Shown: piece after piece, positions 4,118 through 25,952 of the stretch | How positions within the stretch are numbered: position 1 is the stretch's first letter | Layout: each line of letters begins with the position of its first letter | Source of the DNA: an uncultured Bacilli bacterium | GTDB taxonomy: Bacteria; Bacillota_I; Bacilli_A; RF39; UBA660 | Length of the DNA: 49,515 nt | NCBI GenBank assembly: GCA_947624705.1 | Contig: CANQLL010000002.1 | Location: 1 to 49,515, forward strand | Reading direction: 5' to 3' | Position numbers and translations under genes: made by a program | The notes under the pieces: model-generated | Databases searched by the model: none | What the model saw: only the letters and a program-made list of their open reading frames with translations | Told to the model about the DNA's origin: nothing

Positions 4118-4600
4118 TTAACTTTTTGTACAAATTGAACTATTAATTAATCTTTTATAATTATGATTTAATTTCCAAAATAAATTATTAGGAATTTTAT
4201 AATTTAAGATTTCTTGATTTTCTAAAGCATATTTGTATACTTCATCATTACTAGTTATTTCTACTAATTCATACGCTTTTTTATCCCCATATTCGTCTAA
4301 AATTTGGTCTACTATTTCAGCATGGGCATCTAACAAAACTATAGTTGGCGGAATTTTATCTTTAAATTCGATAAAACCTTGAGGTAGGTAATAATTATAT
4401 ACTTCTTTTAACATAGGACCAGTATTAGTTATATTAAATTCATCATCAAACATAGGAATGCCAAATTTTAAAATATGCTCCTTTTGCATTAAATACATTA
4501 GTTTTACTAATTTTGATGTACCTAAATTAATTTTTTTGTCTATGGCCCTATTAATAATAGCATTAGCTATATGAATTGCCCATTTTCTTTCTTCACTCAT
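4118..4600 (-). CDS. Panacea (DUF4065, SocA/PanA-like) domain protein
   Basis: KLVKLMYLMQKEHILKFGIPMFDDEFNITNTGPMLKEVYNYY plus ...ILDEYGDKKAYELVEITSNDEVY match the Panacea-domain pattern (KLqKLlY...G.plf.e.f.A...GPv...vY). AGGAGGG RBS. Sits 13 nt after the pcrA stop. Confidence 0.6.
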   Translation of the reverse strand: MSEERKWAIHIANAIINRAIDKKINLGTSKLVKLMYLMQKEHILKFGIPMFDDEFNITNTGPMLKEVYNYYLPQGFIEFKDKIPPTIVLLDAHAEIVDQILDEYGDKKAYELVEITSNDEVYKYALENQEILNYKIPNNLFWKLNHNYKRLINSSICTKS

Positions 4601-6775: not shown

Positions 6776-7645
6776 TTAATTATTAACTTCTTCAAGTTTT
6801 CCTTGCACTTTATTTTCTAACATTCTCTTTTCTTTTTCTAATTCTTTTAAACTTTTCTTAGGAGTTGGCATTTCCTCGGGCATCATCCCGCCAATATCAG
6901 CAATAGCTTTTCTCACTTTTCTCCCAACTTCATAATGAACAGCCTTAGCATTATTTTCACCTTGAACATTATCTTTAATTAATCTTTGTTTTGTCTGATT
7001 TATTCTAAATAAATTGGCAATTAATTCATCTTCATTCATATTATCTAGGATATCTTCTCGATAACGTAATTTTTTTCTTTTGAAAATATCATCAGCTGTT
7101 TCTCCATTATATAATCCTTTATAACCTTCATTATGAAATTCGGCCATATTTTTAACACCAGCCGATGATGCTACCTTTTGAAGAGTATAATTACCTTGTC
7201 TCGTTAATTTTCTTTGATAAAATCTTTTTTCATCATCTGATAAAGAATCATATTCTAACTCCGTAATTTCTTGCTTCCTTGTTTGAATGGCAAAATAAGT
7301 TTGCCCTAAAGCTATAACTTCTTTACTAGGATCAGCATTTTGGACTATAAGATAGCAAGCATATCTCGAAAGTTTATATTCAACAATTTTTCTTTTTGCC
7401 GTTTTTCCTAATTCTATCATTTTGTTGACTTCAACAAAATGATCTAATACGTTAAATTTACTATTTTCACAAGATATAATTGCCTTATCTATTACTACTT
7501 TAAAATTTCGCCATTCTTTATACTCTAATGCTTTTTGTAATTCACGTGCATACCAATATTCATTTCCATTTTTATCTAAATGTTTTATACTTTCAAAAGT
7601 ACTATTAGTATTATTTAATTCTTTTTCTTTTAACTGATTTTTCAT
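6776..7645 (-). CDS. dinD: DNA damage-inducible protein D homologue
   Basis: Collinear similarity to E. coli DinD across the whole length (LSRYACYLIVQNADPSKEVIALGQTYFAIQTRKQE, ANLFR..QT, HYEVGRKVRKAI...GGMMPEEMPTP). The start was moved to the ATG at 7645, which has AGGGAGGAA upstream. The ORF-track 22-aa extension has no RBS. Confidence 0.85.
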   Translation of the reverse strand: MKNQLKEKELNNTNSTFESIKHLDKNGNEYWYARELQKALEYKEWRNFKVVIDKAIISCENSKFNVLDHFVEVNKMIELGKTAKRKIVEYKLSRYACYLIVQNADPSKEVIALGQTYFAIQTRKQEITELEYDSLSDDEKRFYQRKLTRQGNYTLQKVASSAGVKNMAEFHNEGYKGLYNGETADDIFKRKKLRYREDILDNMNEDELIANLFRINQTKQRLIKDNVQGENNAKAVHYEVGRKVRKAIADIGGMMPEEMPTPKKSLKELEKEKRMLENKVQGKLEEVNN

Positions 7646-7668
7646 AAAACCATTCCTCCCTTTCCAAA

Positions 7669-7693
7669 AGTATAACACACAAACTTTTGTTTG
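7669..7693 (-). promoter_or_regulatory. putative dinD promoter (extended -10 TGTTATACT) with an overlapping 14-nt palindrome CAAAC-N4-GTTTG
   Basis: On the minus strand, CAAACAAAAGTTTG (7680-7693) sits just upstream of TGtTATACT (7669-7677). The palindrome resembles the Gram-positive LexA (Cheo) box CGAAC-N4-GTTCG, with one symmetric substitution per half-site. Confidence 0.35.
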
Positions 7694-7755
7694 AAAAGAA
7701 TTATTCAACAATTTTGATAAACTTATGATATACTTTTATTAAAGAGGTGTTGTAA

Positions 7756-8145: not shown

Positions 8146-8679
8146 ATGAATACAATTGATTTAAAAAATGAAAAAATTATTTATCAAGGCAAAGCTTGTA
8201 TAAATAAAGTAGATAAACAAATTGGTAAATGGCTGACTTTATTTATTAGTTTAGGTATATTAGGATTTTTCGCTTTACAAAACTATATTAAAATAAATTT
8301 ATTTTTTTATATATTGATTATTTTCATTATCTTTATATTATTTATAAGTTTAATCTATGGTTTAATACATAATTTATTTTTAATCAAAAAATATAAAAAT
8401 AATCAATATATTATAACTGATAAAAGATTAATCATAATAGCAGACAATATAAAAGAAGGACTTATTAAAGACATTAATTATGCGCAGATTTCTAATGAAA
8501 AAAATAATTATGGAAACTTAATCTTTTATCAAGCTGATGAAGAAAGTTTTATAAAAATGTTAAAAAGTAAAATTACTTTTAGTTTTATGGGTATAGAAAA
8601 TCCTCGTAATATTTTAAAACAAATTTTACATTTAAATCCTTATATTAATGTGTTTGATGATAAAATTAAATGGAAATAG
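8146..8679 (+). CDS. membrane protein with C-terminal bacterial PH-like (YdbS/YdbT-type) domain
   Basis: Two TM helices followed by YIITDKRLIII...INYAQISN...GNLIFY. The ATG directly abuts the dgkA stop (TAAATG). Confidence 0.5.
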   Translation: MNTIDLKNEKIIYQGKACINKVDKQIGKWLTLFISLGILGFFALQNYIKINLFFYILIIFIIFILFISLIYGLIHNLFLIKKYKNNQYIITDKRLIIIADNIKEGLIKDINYAQISNEKNNYGNLIFYQADEESFIKMLKSKITFSFMGIENPRNILKQILHLNPYINVFDDKIKWK

Positions 8680-11950: not shown

Positions 11951-13459
11951 TTATTCCTCGACAAATAAAGTTTTAGTTTCTTTCATTTCTTCGGGAATAG
12001 AAATATCCATATATTTTAAAATAGTAGGAGCAACATTACTTAAATTACCACTTTGTTTTAATTTTACTTTTTTATCGGTAATTATAAAAGGAACTTCACT
12101 TAAAGTGTGCGTCGTAACTGGATTTTCATTTTCATCTAACATGATATCACAATTACCATGATCAGATAACAAAAATATGGTATAAAAATTGTCTTCGCAT
12201 GCCTCAATAACTTTTCCTAAACACGCATCTAAAATTTGTAAACCTTTAATAGTAGCATTTAAATTACCAGTATGCCCTAACATATCAGGATTAGCATAAT
12301 TAAGTAAGATAAAATCATAATCTTTTTCAATCGCATTTATGGTTTTTTTTGTTACTTCTATGGCGGACATTTCCGGCTTTAGATCGTAGGTTGCAACCTT
12401 TGGAGATGGTATTAAAAATTTATCACAACCGGCAATCGGTCCAGTATATTCCCCATCAAAAAATTTAGTAACATGATTAAATTTTTCCGTTTCCGCTATT
12501 CTAGCTTGTGTTAAACCTAATTTAGATAAATAAATTCCTAATGGATTAGTTGATAATTCCTCTTCAAAGAAAACTCTTTCAGGAATATTTTTATCCATTT
12601 CAAATAAAGTATATAATCTAATGTTACTAACATTAGTTGCAAATTTATCAAAATCTGCTAAAGTTAAACTTGATAGTATTTGCTTTGCTCGATCAGTACG
12701 ATAGTTCATCCATAATAAAGCATCTCCATCCTTAATTAATCCATTCTTATCTAAAAGAATTGGTGGTAGAAATTCATCAGTGACATTTTTAGCATAGCAA
12801 GTATCAATAGCTTTAGGTAAATCTAGAGGTTTATTTCCTTTACCCTTAGTAACTAAATCATAATATATTTGAGTGCGATTATAATTTGTATCACGATCCA
12901 TTGCGTAATATCGACCACAAATAGTAGCAATACTTCCTAAATTATTTTTATTAATTTCAGTTTGTAACATATTTATATATTTTAAAGATGAATTAACAGG
13001 TGTATCACGACCATCAGTTATAACATGAAAATAAACATTAGCAAGATTTTCATTTTTTAAATGTTCTAAAATTTTTATAAAATGGCTAATTTGAGCATGT
13101 ACACCACCATCAGAAAGTAAACCCATTATATGTAAAGATTTCTTATTATCTTTAACATAGTCAATCATATCACTAAAATTTTCATTTTCTTTAAAAGCTT
13201 CTTTGTTTAATTCCTCAGTTGCTATTAATTGTTTTTGTCTTAAAATTTTTCCTGCTCCAATAATCGTATGACATACTTCACTATTTCCAAATTGACCCTC
13301 GGGTAAACCAACTGAATTTTCCGAAGCTTTTAATAACATATGCGGATAGTCATTAAACAATTTGTTGTAATTTGGCATTACTGCCTGTTTAATAGCATTT
13401 CCATGAATTTCTTCCCTATAACCAAAACCATCTAGTATAATAGTTAAGATTTTCTTCAT
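11951..13459 (-). CDS. gpmI: 2,3-bisphosphoglycerate-independent phosphoglycerate mutase
   Basis: Full-length iPGM: ILDGFG, GNSEVCH, GGVH, DGRDT, NYANPDMLGHTG and SDHGN motifs. The ATG at 13459 has AGAAAGAG upstream. Confidence 0.93.
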   Translation of the reverse strand: MKKILTIILDGFGYREEIHGNAIKQAVMPNYNKLFNDYPHMLLKASENSVGLPEGQFGNSEVCHTIIGAGKILRQKQLIATEELNKEAFKENENFSDMIDYVKDNKKSLHIMGLLSDGGVHAQISHFIKILEHLKNENLANVYFHVITDGRDTPVNSSLKYINMLQTEINKNNLGSIATICGRYYAMDRDTNYNRTQIYYDLVTKGKGNKPLDLPKAIDTCYAKNVTDEFLPPILLDKNGLIKDGDALLWMNYRTDRAKQILSSLTLADFDKFATNVSNIRLYTLFEMDKNIPERVFFEEELSTNPLGIYLSKLGLTQARIAETEKFNHVTKFFDGEYTGPIAGCDKFLIPSPKVATYDLKPEMSAIEVTKKTINAIEKDYDFILLNYANPDMLGHTGNLNATIKGLQILDACLGKVIEACEDNFYTIFLLSDHGNCDIMLDENENPVTTHTLSEVPFIITDKKVKLKQSGNLSNVAPTILKYMDISIPEEMKETKTLFVEE

Positions 13460-16355: not shown

Positions 16356-17357
16356 TTATTTTTCTAAAGCCACATTTCCCATGGAAGAAGCAATAGTCAT
16401 TAACTCATCAGTTGATAAATTACTACTAGTTAAATAATAATCTACGTTATCAGAAGTCCATGATAAAGAATTATCGGATAATGCTGCAACTGAGTCGGTT
16501 AATAATAATGGATCTCCATTAACAGGAATTATTTCAAATTCTTTACTTACCGTTGCGGGTTCTTCGACTAATATAAATGATTTGTCACCATTAAAAGTTA
16601 ATATAGTTCGATCAGTTTGCTCATCATTTATTTTATCTTCACTTTTTAAATAAGTATTTGTTGGAACATATAAAGGATAAATAGCATCTTCTAAACTGCC
16701 TGTTTCTTTTGTTTCTTCTTGCGTTTTTTCTTCACTTTCATCAATTAAAGTACTTAATTCAAAATAATCATCTTTATATTTTGCTTTATAATCTAAAGTT
16801 TTAACTAAAACTTTAATTTTAACGTCTTTATTACTATCATAAACATTTACTTCTTTTAAATTCATATCTTTATCAAAGTACAAATTTTGGTTAACTAGAG
16901 ATTTATTATGGGGATAATTAACTGTTGATGTTATAACATAATTACCATCTTTTTCTTGTAAAGTCGCTTTTTCATCGTTTAAAACATCATTTAATAAAGA
17001 AGATAAGATATAAGATTGACTACTATTATCAGGCCATTCACTTTCAAATTTAAAACTTTTATTTAAACTAGGAGTTACCACATAAACACTTTCACTATTT
17101 TTTAAAATTATTTGCTCATGATTATTATTTTGATTAATCATACTTACTTTATAATTATCATCTTTTTTATAATTTACCACTATATCATATTTAAAAGTAT
17201 CTTCATTATTATAAATTTCCATTGTTCCTTTAAGTAAATAACCTTTAGATGATGTTACTTTATTTTTAAATTCATCTTTAGCTTTATTAATATCCATTTT
17301 TCCACAACCACAACACATGAATAATACAATTAAACTTAAAGCTATTATCTTTTTCAT
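16356..17357 (-). CDS. lipoprotein, possibly LolA-like/DUF4367-type fold
   Basis: Signal peptide with lipobox (LFMCCGC). The fold assignment is by pattern only. Confidence 0.65.
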   Translation of the reverse strand: MKKIIALSLIVLFMCCGCGKMDINKAKDEFKNKVTSSKGYLLKGTMEIYNNEDTFKYDIVVNYKKDDNYKVSMINQNNNHEQIILKNSESVYVVTPSLNKSFKFESEWPDNSSQSYILSSLLNDVLNDEKATLQEKDGNYVITSTVNYPHNKSLVNQNLYFDKDMNLKEVNVYDSNKDVKIKVLVKTLDYKAKYKDDYFELSTLIDESEEKTQEETKETGSLEDAIYPLYVPTNTYLKSEDKINDEQTDRTILTFNGDKSFILVEEPATVSKEFEIIPVNGDPLLLTDSVAALSDNSLSWTSDNVDYYLTSSNLSTDELMTIASSMGNVALEK

Positions 17358-19997: not shown

Positions 19998-20441
19998 TTA
20001 TAAATTATATAGATTAAGATTTCTTTTAGTTTCTTTATCTAATTCTTTTTTCTTAAGACTTTCTCTTTTATCATACAATTTTTTACCTTTAGCAATTCCT
20101 ATTAAAAGCTTTGCTTTATTCTTTTTTAAATATAATTTTAAAGGTACTAAAGAATAACCATCTTGCATAATAGCTTCTTTAATCTTTAATATTTCTTTTT
20201 TATGTAAAAGTAATTTTCTTTCTCTTCTTTCTTCATGATTAAAGATATTACCTTCTTCATATTTAGCAATATACATATTAATTACATATACTTCATTATT
20301 TTTAATCCGGGCAAAAGAATCTTTTAAACTGACAGAACCTTGGCGAATGGCTTTAATTTCTGTGCCTTTTAAAACTATACCGGTTTCATATTCTTTGATT
20401 ATTTCATAATCAAAATAAGCTTTTTTATTCTTGATTTCCAT
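19998..20441 (-). CDS. smpB: SsrA-binding protein
   Basis: [20 protein letters not shown] and [14 protein letters not shown] motifs. The ATG at 20441 is 8 nt after GAGGA. Overlaps the rnr 3' end. Confidence 0.92.
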
Positions 20442-22539
20442 GTTGATCATCCTCTACTAATTCAAAATCAACTTGAGCAGTTGCTTTACTAGCCGCAACA
20501 CATTTAACTTTTACCCTATCGCCTAAACGATAAGTTTTTTTTGTTGATTTACCAATTAAAGCCAATAATTCCGGAACATAATTATAGTAATCACCTTTTA
20601 AAGTTTTAATATGTACTAAGCCTTCTACTAAATTTGGTAATTCCACAAATAAACCAAAATTAGTGACCGAAGTAATAAACCCAGGATACTCCTCCCCAAT
20701 ATGATCTTCCATGTATTCTGCCATTTTCATATCATCAACTTCGCGTTCGGCATCAACCGCTGCTCTTTCCCGTTCACTTGAATGCTCGGCAATTTCTACT
20801 AGAGAATTTTCATAATTAGCAATAGTGGTCATACTCATATCTTTTTTAACTAAGTATGTTTTAAGTAAACGATGCACTGTTAAATCGGGAAAACGACGAA
20901 TTGGCGAAGTAAAGTGCGTGTAACTTGGACTAGCTAAACCAAAGTGCCCAATATTTTCTTTACTATAAATAGCTTTTTTCATACTTCGTAAAAGTAATGT
21001 TGATAAAATGGGAAATTCTTTTTTATCTTTTAATTCAGCTAAAATATTTTGCATACCTTTGGGAGTCAAATCAATTTTTTTAGATTTTAAATTATAACCA
21101 AGTAAATGAACTAATGTCATAAATTCATCTATTTTATCACTATTTGGTTTATCATGAACCCGATAGATAAAAGGTAGGCCCATGTTATAAATATGCGTCG
21201 CTACACATTCATTAGCAGCAATCATGAAATCTTCAATTAACATTTCGCCTTCTTTTTGTTCTCTTTTCTTAATATCAATAGCTTTACCAGTTTCATCCTG
21301 AATGATTTTAGCTTCTTCGGCTTCAAAACTTATATAACCGCGTCCTATTTTTCTTTTTCTTAAGATATGAGCCAGTTCATTCATTAAAAGTAAATCATCT
21401 TTAAAATCTTTATATCCTCTTGGACTTTTATGGTCAATTAAAATAGCATTAACATCATCATAATTCATTTTTTTTCTTGATTTAATATAACTTTCAAAAA
21501 TATCATAAGTTACTAAATTGCCTTGAGGATCAATTTCCATAACACAAGACATAGTTAAACGAATTACCCCCTCATTTAAAGAACAAATACCATTTGATAA
21601 TTTATGAGGTAACATCGGAATAACAGTATCAGCTAAATATGAAGATGTCCCGCGATTATAAGCATCATCACCTAAAGCAGTATTTTCTTTAACATAATGA
21701 GAAACATCAGCAATATGAACTCCTAAAATATAATTATTTCCTTTTTTAAAAATGGAAATGGCATCATCAATATCTTTGGTATCTTTACCATCAATGGTAA
21801 AGATACATTCGCCCGTTAAATCTTTACGACCAACTAATTCTTTTGGATCAACTTCATCCGGAATATTTTCTAATTCTTGTAAAACTTCATCACTATATTT
21901 ATCATATATTTCATGTTTATAAGCAATACTTAAAATATCTACTCCTGGATCATCTTTATGTCCTAAAATAGCTAATACTTTACCTAAATATTTATTTTTA
22001 CCTAATTCTTTTTCAATCCCAACTAAAACTTTATGACCTTCCACACAATTATGTAAAGAATCTTTATCTAAAACGACTTCAATATCTTTTTTAGTATCAT
22101 CTAGTTTAAAACCTAAACCATTATCAACTTTAATAAGTTCTCCTACCAAATTTTTAAGTTCACGATTAATAATACGTAATACTCTACCTTCTTTTTTTAA
22201 GGCTTTGGTTTCCACTTCAACTAAAACAATATCACCATCAATTGCGCCATTTAAATTTTTTTTATCGATATAAATATCATCTTCTTTATCCAAGATTAAA
22301 AAACCAAAACCTTTTTTATTGATATCTAATTTACCTATTTTTAAACCAGGGGTATTTTCTAATAAAATATATTTATCTTTTTTAGTTTTATAAATTAAAC
22401 ATTCTTTTTCTAGCTTATTTAATTCATCTAATAATTCTTTATATTCTAAAGAAGTTTTTAAACCTAATAAATCATTTATTTCAATAGGTTCTAAAGCTTT
22501 ATGAATTGGTTTTAAGATTTCAATTATTTTTTCTTTCAT
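20425..22539 (-). CDS. rnr: ribonuclease R
   Basis: Cold-shock-like N-terminal domains, RNB core ([31 protein letters not shown]) and a C-terminal S1 domain. Confidence 0.93.
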
Positions 22540-22587: not shown

Positions 22588-22619
22588 AAAAAAAGAAACC
22601 TAGTATACACATAGGTTTC
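22588..22619 (-). terminator. strong intrinsic terminator after the 855-aa gene
   Basis: Minus strand reads GGAAACCTA-tgtgtatac-TAGGTTTCT followed by 7 T. Starts 4 nt after the stop codon. Confidence 0.8.
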
Positions 22620-22622
22620 CAT

Positions 22623-25190
22623 TTAACAACCATTAGGGTTCCATTCTTCATCATCACAAAAATCACCATCCCAGTCAACATTTTCACCAGCTTCAGTTCC
22701 AGGTGCAAGTTGACAAAGTATATCATCACTACCCACATTAATATCACAAACATATACTCCACGCTGATAGTTTTTCTGACATTTAACTTTGTCACAATTA
22801 TAACCTTTCGTATTAATTACACTACCCGCACCTTCTAGATAAAAGCTTATTTTATCCCCGGAATATACATTTCCAGACAATTTATAATGGCCACCATCTT
22901 GCGTACTAGCTTGTCCTATACTAGAATTCGCAACAATATTAGTAAATCCTTTAGAAAAATTAAATTTGCTTACAATAATTTGTATTTTTATATTCCCGAT
23001 ATTTCCACAACCAAAACGATCATCATCAGTATCTGGACAAAGTTGAATTTCCCCTAAATCTTTAAAATAAGAATAATTATCGTTCATATTTAGATATTTA
23101 GTATTTACAAAAACAGGTACTAACTTATCAACATTGTCAACAAATTTTTCGATTTTATATGCTTCTAAATTATTTAATCGAGCCTCTAAATTAGTTTTAT
23201 TCATACCACGAATATAGTCAAACAATTCCGTACTAACGCCAAAATACCATATTGGTGTATAAAAATTCAGTTTAAATTCCTCAAACTTTTGGTGATTATC
23301 AGCAATAACTTTCCAAATATATTCCGTATTTTCGGCATCATGACAGTTTGAAACAATACAATGTCTATATCCTTTTATAACTCTTGTAGCTAAAACATCA
23401 TTAAAATTATCAACGCCATTATTGTTAAGTATAGCCGAGCAGTGCAAAGCAGTCATACCATATAAGTAATAAGCTTGAGATAAATCTAATGTAGCCGTAT
23501 TTTTTAATCCTTGAATATTAAATTTTAAAATATCATAGTCACTATCTTTATCAATAATTAATTTAACATTATTATTACTATCTATTTGATATTCTTCTTC
23601 TGATTTTTTTGTTAAACTAGGATCAAATAAGGAATATGTTTCGGAACCGAATTGTGATCTATTTTTATAATGAGAACCATATATTTTAATTTCTTTAGCA
23701 TTTATTGATTGAATTGGTAAGGTTAATTTTAAATATAAATCATCTTCTACTTCAAAAGTGGCATTATCTCCAGCAATGGCCTTAATATCATTCATGTCAT
23801 ATTGAAAATGTCCTGGTAATATTAAGGTTAATTTAATACTTTTAAATTTTACTGTACATTCCATAGAACTATCTACATTTCCTAACTCTAAATATGCTGT
23901 TGTATCTGTATTACTAGTTTGTCTTACTATTTTACTACTATTACTACATTGCAAACTATCAAATATATATCCATCATTTGCCTTAAAAGAATAATTACTA
24001 TTGCTTCCTTTTAAGACATAATATTCATATGGTGTTGTACTACTTCCTTTTCTAGTAGCAGTTGAATTTGTTACCGTTCCATTTTCAACATTTATTTTTA
24101 CAACTGGCATTTCTTCCCAATAAGCATAAATTGTTGTGTTAGAAGTTGCGAATTTATTAGTTAGATTATTTGTTATATTTCCACTTGCATCAATTAATTG
24201 TTTTCCACTACCATTTTGTTTTTCATAATATCCTTTAAATACATAACCTGTTCTTGTTGGTACACTTACTTTTGTTATTGCTTGCGTAACTGTATTATTA
24301 CTATATAATCCTACTGAATATTTTTCATAGATAGTGCTTGTTCCCCCACTTCCACTTTGTTGATTTAAAGAAATTGAGTAAATTCCTTCGGTCCATTTAG
24401 CATATAAAAACAAATCACTAACTACTGTGTGCTCACTATTAGCATTATACTGGACATTTCCACCTTGGATTGTACTCCAACCTAAGAAATTATAACCTGC
24501 TCTATTAGGAATACTGGAACTAATATGAATTAAAGTGTTATATCCTATGCTTTCTATATTATCTGGCATATTAGTAACATTATCGATAGTATCTTTGTTG
24601 TAAGTAACATTATAAAATCCGGTACTCCATCTTGCATATAACGTAGTATTACTTGTTAAAGCAATTCTATCATTTGGTTGATAAACACTTTTATCTTTTT
24701 TATTTTCCCATCCCGAAAATTTATATCCCGCTCTATTAGGAATTTGATTAGAAAGTGAAAATTTACTTAAAGCATCATGGGTTTCTTTACTTGGAGCATT
24801 ATTGCCTCCATTTGCATCATAAGTTAAAGTATACTTTTCTTTAATAGTCCCCTCACACTTACTTTCATCAGCAACTTTTTCCACTACTTCATATATTCCA
24901 TCTTTTTTATTAACTTTAACGAAATAACTTTCATAATCTTTAACAGCATTTTCTTTTAAATATGATTTCTCTAATAACTTTTGAACATTTAAACAATCAG
25001 TTTGAATATGTTCAACTGTAACATAACTCTCTGCTGCAGCCTTTATCAAACTTTCTATTCTCGTTTGTTCTTTATCTTCTTGTTTTTTATTTAAACCAAC
25101 CATATTTATAGCTATAACGCTTCCTATTAAAGCTAGTAAGGCAATTGTTACAATTAATTCTACTAAAGTAAATCCTTTTTTCTTTTTCAT
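22623..25190 (-). CDS. 855-aa modular prepilin-like protein: class III signal + pilin-like head + 3-4 InlB B-repeat (Flg_new) modules + ~490-aa unassigned Cys-rich C-terminal region
   Basis: MKKKKG/FTLVELIVTIALLALIG, with Gly at -1, Phe at +1 and Glu at +5. Residues 120-188, 193-266 and 271-358 repeat the pattern Y.(V/L).Y..(N)GG....P.R.GY.F.GW....LYA(R/K/Y)W. GGTGAG RBS. Confidence 0.7.
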   Translation of the reverse strand: MKKKKGFTLVELIVTIALLALIGSVIAINMVGLNKKQEDKEQTRIESLIKAAAESYVTVEHIQTDCLNVQKLLEKSYLKENAVKDYESYFVKVNKKDGIYEVVEKVADESKCEGTIKEKYTLTYDANGGNNAPSKETHDALSKFSLSNQIPNRAGYKFSGWENKKDKSVYQPNDRIALTSNTTLYARWSTGFYNVTYNKDTIDNVTNMPDNIESIGYNTLIHISSSIPNRAGYNFLGWSTIQGGNVQYNANSEHTVVSDLFLYAKWTEGIYSISLNQQSGSGGTSTIYEKYSVGLYSNNTVTQAITKVSVPTRTGYVFKGYYEKQNGSGKQLIDASGNITNNLTNKFATSNTTIYAYWEEMPVVKINVENGTVTNSTATRKGSSTTPYEYYVLKGSNSNYSFKANDGYIFDSLQCSNSSKIVRQTSNTDTTAYLELGNVDSSMECTVKFKSIKLTLILPGHFQYDMNDIKAIAGDNATFEVEDDLYLKLTLPIQSINAKEIKIYGSHYKNRSQFGSETYSLFDPSLTKKSEEEYQIDSNNNVKLIIDKDSDYDILKFNIQGLKNTATLDLSQAYYLYGMTALHCSAILNNNGVDNFNDVLATRVIKGYRHCIVSNCHDAENTEYIWKVIADNHQKFEEFKLNFYTPIWYFGVSTELFDYIRGMNKTNLEARLNNLEAYKIEKFVDNVDKLVPVFVNTKYLNMNDNYSYFKDLGEIQLCPDTDDDRFGCGNIGNIKIQIIVSKFNFSKGFTNIVANSSIGQASTQDGGHYKLSGNVYSGDKISFYLEGAGSVINTKGYNCDKVKCQKNYQRGVYVCDINVGSDDILCQLAPGTEAGENVDWDGDFCDDEEWNPNGC

Positions 25191-25192
25191 AC

Positions 25193-25591
25193 TTACTCAC
25201 CATTTTTTTGTAATTCATAATTAAAAGTTATTTTTTCATTTTTATCCAAATTACTATATTTTGTATTTAATTCTTCTTGAATAGATATTGAACTTTTTGC
25301 TTTGACATCTTGATCTATTCTTTTTAAAAGATAAACTACTTCTTCTTTTTTATCATCTAAAACCTTGATAACTATTGAATCTAGATGTTCTTCTTTTTTA
25401 GAAGTATTTTTTATTTCAATATCAATATCTATAGTATCTTCATTAATTTTATAATTTTCTTTAGCTACTACAATATTATCCGTTATTTTTTTAGTTTTAC
25501 TATCTTTAACTATTAAAAAAACTATCATTCCAATTAGGGCAATACCAAGAGCAATTCCAATAACTATTAAAATGTTTTTGCTTTTTTTCAT
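25193..25591 (-). CDS. 132-aa N-terminally membrane-anchored protein, beta-rich ectodomain, unknown function
   Basis: A single N-terminal TM (ILIVIGIALGIALIGMIVFLIV) followed by ~100 aa of hydrophilic sequence. The ATG at 25591 is 7 nt after AGGCGG. The stop is 2 nt before the start of the 855-aa gene. Confidence 0.55.
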   Translation of the reverse strand: MKKSKNILIVIGIALGIALIGMIVFLIVKDSKTKKITDNIVVAKENYKINEDTIDIDIEIKNTSKKEEHLDSIVIKVLDDKKEEVVYLLKRIDQDVKAKSSISIQEELNTKYSNLDKNEKITFNYELQKNGE

Positions 25592-25618
25592 TATCACACC
25601 GCCTTATACCTTAAATAA

Positions 25619-25647
25619 ATTATAATTTTTTTTAAGATTAAAATCAA
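25619..25647 (-). promoter_or_regulatory. sigma-A-type promoter TTGATT-17-TATAAT for the two-gene cassette
   Basis: On the minus strand, TTGATT (25642-25647), a 17-nt spacer and TATAAT (25619-25624). Lies immediately downstream of the secG terminator. Confidence 0.6.
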
Positions 25648-25652
25648 GCTTT

Positions 25653-25675
25653 AAAAAAAGAACCACTTAGGTTCC
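25653..25675 (-). terminator. intrinsic terminator after secG
   Basis: Minus strand reads GGAACC-taagt-GGTTCT followed by 7 T. Confidence 0.65.
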
Positions 25676-25894
25676 CTATTTAACAAAAAGTATAAATGAA
25701 ATAACAAAAAATGCTATTCCTAAAATCATGGTAATTCTAGTTATTAATAATTCAACCCCACGTTCTTTTTGTTTTTGAAACAAATTAGCATTACCACCTG
25801 AAATAATTTGACTAGCATCACTAGCTTTATTACTTTGAAGTAAGACAATAGCAATTAATATAACTGAGATAATTAATAAAATAGTTTCTAACAT
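25676..25894 (-). CDS. secG: preprotein translocase subunit SecG
   Basis: Two-TM SecG pattern (VILIAIVLLQS.K...S.I.SGG...LF). The ATG at 25894 has GGAAGTGA upstream. Confidence 0.88.
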   Translation of the reverse strand: MLETILLIISVILIAIVLLQSNKASDASQIISGGNANLFQKQKERGVELLITRITMILGIAFFVISFILFVK

Positions 25895-25952
25895 AAGTTC
25901 ACTTCCGTTTCCGTATATATAATTTATCATAGGTTGACCAATATAGCAAGTT

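Follow-up and report, generated by a model that had tools for sequence, protein, structure and literature searches.

Modular pilins, which join a pilin module (IPR012902) to at least one non-pilus domain, have been catalogued in numbers above 1,200, and the pairing of IPR012902 with IPR013378, the Listeria/Bacteroides repeat, is present in Dataset S1 of that catalogue (Raynaud 2021, PMC8179133). The named precedents are PilB and PilC of Streptococcus sanguinis, in which a small pilin with a class III signal bears one grafted module, vWA in PilB and a lectin in PilC. A small protein encoded next to PilC, PilA, binds and stabilises its pilin moiety (PMC9934059). CofB of enterotoxigenic Escherichia coli (ETEC) and TcpB of Vibrio cholerae, both large minor pilins of type IVb pili, place a pilin module with beta-repeat/beta-sandwich domains at the pilus tip (PMC8179133). 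Here we describe a locus from an uncultured Bacilli bacterium of the RF39 lineage (contig CANQLL010000002.1 of GenBank assembly GCA_947624705.1; the 49,515 nucleotides analysed are called the window), where genes for an 855-amino-acid (aa) protein and a 132-aa partner lie between secG and rnr. With a probability of roughly 60%, we read the large protein as a giant modular type IV (minor) pilin, most likely a pilus-tip adhesin with a stabilising partner. Tip display and adhesion are predicted for PilB, PilC and the window protein alike.

The original prediction, made from the DNA letters alone, had proposed a 132-aa protein with a single transmembrane (TM) helix, followed 2 nucleotides (nt) on by an 855-aa open reading frame (ORF), between secG and rnr, and all of this was confirmed. 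The two genes and the parts of their products, as delimited by domain searches and AlphaFold2 (AF2) models, are as follows.

22623-25190, minus strand: ORF of the 855-aa pilin
25095..25190, minus strand: class III (prepilin) signal and hydrophobic alpha1-N, MKKKKG/FTLVELIVTIALLALIGSVIAINMVG
24840..25190, minus strand: pilin head module, residues 1-117, modelled as a helix plus a small sheet, with C66 and C112
24111..24839, minus strand: three Flg_new (InlB B-repeat / Listeria-Bacteroides repeat) modules, residues 118-360
23796..24110, minus strand: extra beta domain, residues 361-465, with C415 and C445; predicted local distance difference test score (pLDDT) of the AF2 model ~80
22899..23795, minus strand: fast-evolving C-terminal region, presumed ligand-binding tip, residues 466-764
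22626..22898, minus strand: conserved small beta domain and Cys-rich acidic tail, residues 765-855, no Pfam family
25193-25591 (25193..25591), minus strand: small partner gene, 132 aa from its ATG (134 aa if the GTG at 25597 is used); AF2 model with a TM helix (residues 4-29) and an extracytoplasmic beta-sandwich (residues 40-128)

The large protein opens with a short basic leader, MKKKKG, that ends in glycine and precedes FTLVELIV, the start of a hydrophobic stretch of about 20 residues; Gly-1 (G6), Phe+1 (F7) and Glu+5 (E11) are all in place, as in a class III signal. Pfam N_methyl (PF07963) matches residues 1-26 at 30.1 bits (cut-off 21.2) and NCBIfam TIGR02532, the GFxxxE prepilin domain, matches at 23.5 bits (cut-off 16.3), bearing out the class III signal with Gly-1, Phe+1 and Glu+5 that had been read from the letters. 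An alignment of 20 giant family members shows no variation at G6, F7, L9, V10 or E11 and next to none at C66 and C112. The AF2 model of the head has a helix at 9-60 and strands at 64-68, 90-96 and 99-106, giving with moderate confidence (pLDDT 65-75) the "lollipop" of a long alpha1 helix on a small beta-sheet head. The pilin-like head with its cysteine pair, also part of the first reading, was confirmed. The window head is 45-61% identical to the heads of other giant pilins, and 54% identical to a 101-aa pilin that occupies the same interval in a related genome (L010).

Similarity to the pilins of the Com pilus of monoderm bacteria is weak. The N-terminal 90 residues show sub-threshold similarity to the NCBIfam models of ComGC, ComGE and GspG, and the window head and the small pilins found beside rnr in relatives (see below) share weak, sub-threshold similarity of this kind to ComGC, ComGD, ComGE and ComGF. 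All scores are, however, far below the equivalog cut-offs: for ComGC (NF040999) the window protein reaches 21.6 bits and the small pilins 17-30 bits, against a cut-off of 75. No comGA or comGB is adjacent.

Behind the head, Flg_new (PF09479) matches three stretches (E 1e-24, 86.8 bits vs a cut-off of 27), TIGR02543 also matches, and repeats 1-3 match one another at E 1e-3 to 5e-11. They are modelled as beta-grasp folds with pLDDT 70-90. A Foldseek search with the AF2 model returned the InlB B-repeat structures 2y5p, 7pv9 and 9qr5 and other beta-grasp-repeat surface proteins; beta-grasp repeat proteins were the only matches, with none for the tip, and a sequence search of PDB likewise gave only Flg_new-type matches. 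With N_methyl and three Flg_new modules, the protein falls within the definition of a modular pilin. The same repeat serves as a stalk in the large Flg_new/InlB B-repeat surface proteins of Bacillota, which account for most top matches in a search of 5.8 billion proteins and carry no prepilin annotation, whereas the window repeats sit on a prepilin head.

Three repeats and a divergent fourth had originally been proposed, and the three stand. A fourth Flg_new repeat at residues 361-465 was considered and rejected: this segment has no Pfam match and no significant similarity to repeats 1-3. It is a beta domain conserved in two relatives, P0051 and P0057 (E 1e-10 to 1e-11).

The distal part of the protein has few relatives. 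A phmmer search with residues 471-855 against 1.84 billion representatives found no significant full-length homologue, only the protein itself and two weak, short partial matches, and Pfam searches with separate C-terminal segments returned nothing, in agreement with the original prediction, which could not assign this part. Within residues 466-764, just the first ~120 align with P0051, and the AF2 model leaves ~500-770 unmodelled (pLDDT below 45). The last ~90 residues, on the other hand, are common to a subset of the family (P0051, P0057, P0023, P0024 and the protein encoded at 12258-13304 of locus L007). Here AF2 places strands between 771 and 830 (pLDDT 52-62), and the cysteines are C799, C804, C815, C826, C845 and C855. 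We also observed that residues 831-855 (22626-22700) and the C-termini of P0023, P0024, P0051 and P0057 are acidic, contain two to four cysteines and end in or near a cysteine (for example ...DWDGDFCDDEEWNPNGC and ...CRFDDDGDWIDGSC); no family matches them. Such a tail could be metal-binding or disulfide-locked.

The overall architecture recognised at the outset, a very large modular prepilin-type protein with a head, a Flg_new stalk and an unassigned C-terminus, therefore holds. Compared with PilB and PilC, which carry one module, the window protein carries ~735 grafted residues, comprising the repeats, the beta domain, the variable region and the Cys-rich tail. Unlike theirs, its gene is found next to rnr and not near a pilus operon, and its distal half behaves like a swappable allele; its subfamily is known from sequence only. 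CofB and TcpB share the plan of a pilin plus beta domains, but no sequence or fold match to the window protein was detected, and they are encoded inside the pilus operons of diderm bacteria, whereas the window pilin is outside any such operon.

The 5.8-billion-protein search recovered ~20 proteins with both N_methyl and Flg_new, 676-1375 aa long, whose alignment with the window protein begins at residue 1 and ends at ~240-480. How the rest evolves can be seen in a human-gut relative, in which the last giant pilin upstream of rimP-nusA is present as different strain-level alleles at the following positions.

L095/L096/L097, 10472-13885: rimP-nusA giant-pilin alleles, last giant pilin
L092, 10001-13261: rimP-nusA giant-pilin allele, last giant pilin

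Identity among these alleles is 86-99% across the first 450 residues, but in some pairs it drops to 20-30% across the C-terminal ~640 aa. The L096 allele is split into proteins of 676 and 348 aa. Residues 471-855 of the window protein appear as an orphan because the tips of related alleles diverge to this extent, and the distal region behaves as one would predict for a tip that is exposed at the surface and either binds a ligand or varies antigenically.

The 132-aa partner is modelled with a 26-residue TM helix and a detached seven-strand beta-sandwich (mean pLDDT 79, ~90 over the sandwich). No Pfam or NCBIfam family matches it, and a fold search gave only generic immunoglobulin (Ig)-like or beta-sandwich matches (best E 1.4e-3, none at E <= 1e-3). 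The profile and structure searches suggested in the original prediction for both proteins thus had an uneven outcome, resolving the large one into N_methyl and Flg_new and leaving the partner in no known family. A search with a partner profile recovered 14 clusters in the 5.8-billion-protein collection, none of them annotated, and on this comparison the partner defines a narrow, unannotated family. Since the N-termini of its members (MKKSKNILIVIG..., MSKSSKIVLV..., MMNKKRLIIM...) lack Gly-1 and Glu+5, and hence the class III motif, the partner is not a pilin.

That the giant pilin has a dedicated small partner, as first proposed, is supported by gene neighbourhoods. Outside the window, homologues of the partner (23-61% identity) adjoin giant pilins of the Flg_new type in a further five genomes or genome groups, so that the association is found in the window and these five, out of eight such loci examined. 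The arrangements vary.

L089/L090: partner, then pilin, overlapping by 11 nt
L098: 707-aa pilin, 136-aa partner, 779-aa pilin
L007/L095-97: two partners among three pilins
L008: pilin, then partner
L094: pilin, partner, then two small prepilins

The giant pilin of L099 has no such neighbour. In a more distant array, L100 (5102-24128), four giant N_methyl plus Flg_new proteins (1448, 1375, 1178 and 1052 aa) are interspersed with bitopic proteins (136, 364, 364 and over 290 aa), which are unrelated to the window partner family.

Alleles that share their N-terminal half and have unrelated C-terminal halves, with a small gene always adjacent, are also what a polymorphic toxin-like effector would produce, with an N-terminal delivery part, a swappable C-terminal toxin and an adjacent immunity protein. 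The behaviour of the partner makes this highly improbable. One identical 130-aa partner sequence (P0126) accompanies differing downstream tip alleles; the partner therefore follows the pilin's conserved part and not its tip, and the lack of co-variation argues against a role as immunity protein. In addition, the partner gene is usually upstream, and its product is a membrane protein with an extracytoplasmic domain rather than a cytosolic one. No toxin domain was detected with Pfam, and the extreme C-terminal domain is conserved. A toxin/immunity pair was accordingly rejected, given a partner that is bitopic and does not co-vary with the tip and the absence of a toxin domain.

We then asked what occupies the interval upstream of rnr in relatives chosen by RNase R. 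From 80 species-level genomes fetched, 74 could be evaluated at this site; they are metagenome-assembled genomes (MAGs) of uncultured gut Bacilli or "Tenericutes", including "Mycoplasma sp. CAG:956", "Coprobacillus sp. CAG:605", Candidatus Caccenecus and Candidatus Onthocola. A prepilin gene lies within 900 bp upstream of rnr in 40 of the 74 species, and the loci divide as follows.

28 of 74 loci: secG directly before rnr
26 of 74 loci: small prepilin (111-143 aa) adjoining rnr
13 of 74 loci: prepilin and rnr with one gene between them (thymidine kinase, or a pilin-like paralogue in L085/L086) or a spacer (L010)
1 of 74 loci: 771-aa pilin whose grafted modules are unrelated to those of the window protein (L067)
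6 of 74 loci: other content upstream of rnr
L042 7638-7991, L031 7580-7978 and L022 7026-7361: examples of a small prepilin at the rnr slot, with intact GFTL[IV]E

The cassette had been taken for an insertion into a conserved secG-rnr block, which the comparison did not support. A recently acquired mobile or horizontally transferred cassette would explain why in L009, by RNase R the nearest species (83%), secG and rnr are direct neighbours separated by an 82-bp gap, why 28 of the 74 relatives have no gene there, and why the unit comes with a promoter-like site and a terminator of its own. Against this, the pilin is at the slot in 40 of the 74, and in L098, a related MAG from rabbit gut, the 136-aa partner, the 779-aa pilin and rnr follow one another as in the window, preceded by the 707-aa pilin; along residues 2-583 and 765-855 of the window protein, the 779-aa pilin (P0051) is collinear with it. 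The same interval holds the 101-aa pilin with the similar head in L010 (80% rnr identity), and a partner homologue alone in L012. The G+C content of the cassette, 0.26-0.29, equals that of its flanks, and no integrase, transposase or flanking repeats were found by it in the window. By composition, mobility genes and site occupancy in relatives, the cassette does not qualify as a mobile insertion or genomic islet, and the pattern of presence and absence better fits repeated loss or expansion at a resident locus. Recent acquisition thus seems unlikely.

Taken together, the 40 pilins at the slot, the collinear L098 cassette and the flank-like G+C content indicate that the site upstream of rnr is a resident pilin locus, lost in some lineages and enlarged in others, and, as judged from these alignments, the window cassette is an enlarged version of it that is variably present in the clade. 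The locus would then be a lineage-specific enlargement of a pilin gene kept upstream of rnr, not a foreign insertion.

Several features of this slot deserve mention in their own right. A solitary small prepilin directly upstream of rnr or tdk-rnr, away from any visible pilus operon, was seen in 39 of the 74 species. In L010, ~560 bp without an ORF (713-1272) separate the 101-aa pilin from rnr and could be what is left of an extension since deleted, or else an unannotated RNA. In L085 (769-1134) and L086 (3512-3877), the small pilin is immediately followed by a 121-aa paralogue with a pilin-like head motif (AACDYASE...) and a plain hydrophobic N-terminus without Gly-1 or Glu+5. The 771-aa prepilin of L067 (5568-7883) aligns with the window protein in its head only, and the remainder seems to comprise three Ig-like repeats and, after them, a Gly-rich region. 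Since these modules differ from those of the window protein, different modules have been grafted on the pilin at the rnr slot.

From these observations we infer how the system might work. A prepilin peptidase encoded elsewhere would cleave the 855-aa protein after Gly6, and its alpha1 helix and small disulfide-bonded head would allow uptake by a type IV filament machine. Because of its bulk, a position at the filament tip would be the most probable. The three beta-grasp Flg_new modules and the further beta domain would form a stalk, projecting the rapidly diversifying C-terminal region toward a ligand on the host, mucus, food particles or other microbes. By analogy with PilA and PilC, the co-transcribed bitopic 132-aa partner would most likely hold or stabilise the membrane-embedded prepilin before assembly. 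In both cases the small protein is encoded next to a modular pilin, and the window partner is translationally coupled to and co-conserved with the giant pilin; PilA, however, has the class III signal of a pilin and a GspI-like fold, whereas the window partner has a TM helix and a free beta-sandwich, and its interaction with the pilin is hypothetical. A filament context is also suggested by L094, in which the giant pilin, its partner and the two further small prepilins look like a minor-pilin set.

Several observations weigh against a pilus-borne adhesin. The original prediction had noted that no prepilin peptidase, assembly ATPase or platform gene is encoded in the 49.5 kb, and both domain tables and motif searches agree: the annotated genes of the window contain no T2SSE, T2SSF or peptidase A24 domain, and a six-frame screen of the window for GspE Walker A and A24 signatures was negative. 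No peptidase, ATPase or platform gene was seen within ~10 kb of the related giant-pilin loci examined, and 95 loci (1.3 Mb of local DNA) gave no match when the GspE Walker A motif and the A24 motif GGGDxK were sought as regular expressions. Searching the literature on pili and competence in RF39-like Bacilli, we did not find type IV filament genes of the clade, and genomes as reduced as these might lack the machinery. Unlike PilA, the partner is not a pilin, hence the analogy between the two is functional only. Ligand binding is suggested by the variability of the tip, of which residues 500-770 are unmodelled, and a subunit of 855 aa is large for crossing a Gram-positive wall on a filament.

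With no machinery seen, the main rival becomes a helix-anchored surface protein that is never polymerised: an adhesin whose pilin-type helix, cleaved or uncleaved, serves only as signal-anchor, and which stands on the cell membrane, perhaps paired there with the partner, its repeat stalk passing through the wall. The lack of filament machinery in the window and near related loci, the reduced genomes, the great size of the protein for a pilus subunit, and arrays of up to four giant genes, each with a bitopic neighbour, far from a pilus operon (L100) all fit such an adhesin. A plain anchor, however, has no need of Gly-1, Phe+1 and Glu+5, which are nevertheless invariant in the 20 giant pilins. 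The G-F-T-x-x-E motif (GFTxxE) is also intact in 38 pilin genes of rnr-flanking loci with RNase R 57-80% identical, a set for which the motif was itself the selection criterion. The extra small prepilins beside the giant one in L094 likewise fit a filament better than an anchor. On balance, we regard a non-polymerised adhesin as possible but rather unlikely.

More tentatively still, gut Bacilli with reduced genomes may possess a distinct display system made up of the giant pilin-headed proteins and their bitopic neighbours. Each giant prepilin would then need its own partner, from the window family or from unrelated proteins such as the 136- and 364-aa ones of L100, and the partner would serve in membrane extraction and mounting, or in anchoring without a classical filament machine. 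If true, the swappable C-terminal halves would be a strain-level variable repertoire for attachment or antigenic variation, and the partners would be accessory factors of a new class, serving type IV pilin-like proteins, or the whole would be a pilus-independent use of the class III signal.

Returning to the window, the cassette and its neighbours are all encoded on the minus strand in DNA of ~27% G+C, in the order DUF6512 gene, secG, 132-aa ORF, 855-aa ORF, rnr and smpB. The flanking genes and candidate expression signals are listed here.

25676-25930, minus strand: secG
25653..25675, minus strand: secG terminator-like hairpin and U-run, GGGAACC-UAAGU-GGUUCUU then U7
25619..25647, minus strand: promoter-like TTGATT-17-TATAAT upstream of the small gene, 10/12 matches
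22588..22619, minus strand: terminator-like hairpin and U-run after the large ORF, 9-bp stem GGAAACCUA/UAGGUUUCU
20425-22539, minus strand: rnr
19998-20450, minus strand: smpB

The TAA of the small ORF is followed by GT and then by the ATG of the large ORF, and this 2-nt spacing points to translational coupling. The promoter called near-consensus at the outset is present and is the top-listed promoter-like site of the region, tied among five at 10/12. It is suggestive only and by itself not significant, as the density of such sites equals chance in 27% G+C DNA (50 found vs 43 expected from shuffling). Both hairpins are plausible intrinsic terminators of moderate strength; the automatic terminator scan missed them. 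The one directly past the secG stop (-8.4 kcal/mol, z -1.95) agrees with the terminator originally assigned to secG, and the one after the 855-aa ORF, 83 nt before rnr, is there as described, with its U-run, but at -10.6 kcal/mol (z -3.3) is moderate rather than "strong". Six independently assembled contigs from rabbit-gut-type samples carry the same arrangement and an identical 855-aa protein, which rules out an assembly artefact. An Rfam scan of the window found no RNA family and a tRNA scan found no tRNA, hence no tRNA-linked integration site.

Some other features of the window were noted in passing. The rnr and smpB frames overlap by 26 nt (20425-20450), and the smpB start chosen by gene callers (147 aa) still overlaps. 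A SocA/Panacea antitoxin-domain protein (4118-4600) and a Bro-N domain protein (6776-7711) flank pcrA and look like mobile or phage-derived remnants amid a housekeeping region. Two ORFs, at 16356-17357 (333 aa) and 8146-8679 (177 aa), have no Pfam family; the 333-aa gene is kept in sister contigs.

The general concept of the modular pilin and the combination of N_methyl with the Listeria/Bacteroides repeat are already established. We found no description in the literature of the bitopic partner family, of a pilin slot beside rnr with repeated enlargement, or of the allele-like exchange of tips. Current concepts are unchanged by these findings unless the genomes concerned prove to be without filament machinery. 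Members of the clade ("Mycoplasma sp. CAG:956", "Coprobacillus sp. CAG:605" and Candidatus Caccenecus among them) are common in human and animal guts and have small genomes. Their pilin slot at rnr has been enlarged more than once, by Flg_new modules and a variable tip in the window and by Ig-like and Gly-rich modules in L067, and these enlargements are a clear natural illustration of module-grafting on a pilin. The giant versions are plausible strain-specific adhesins or antigens, and the co-conserved bitopic partner could be a new pilin accessory factor.

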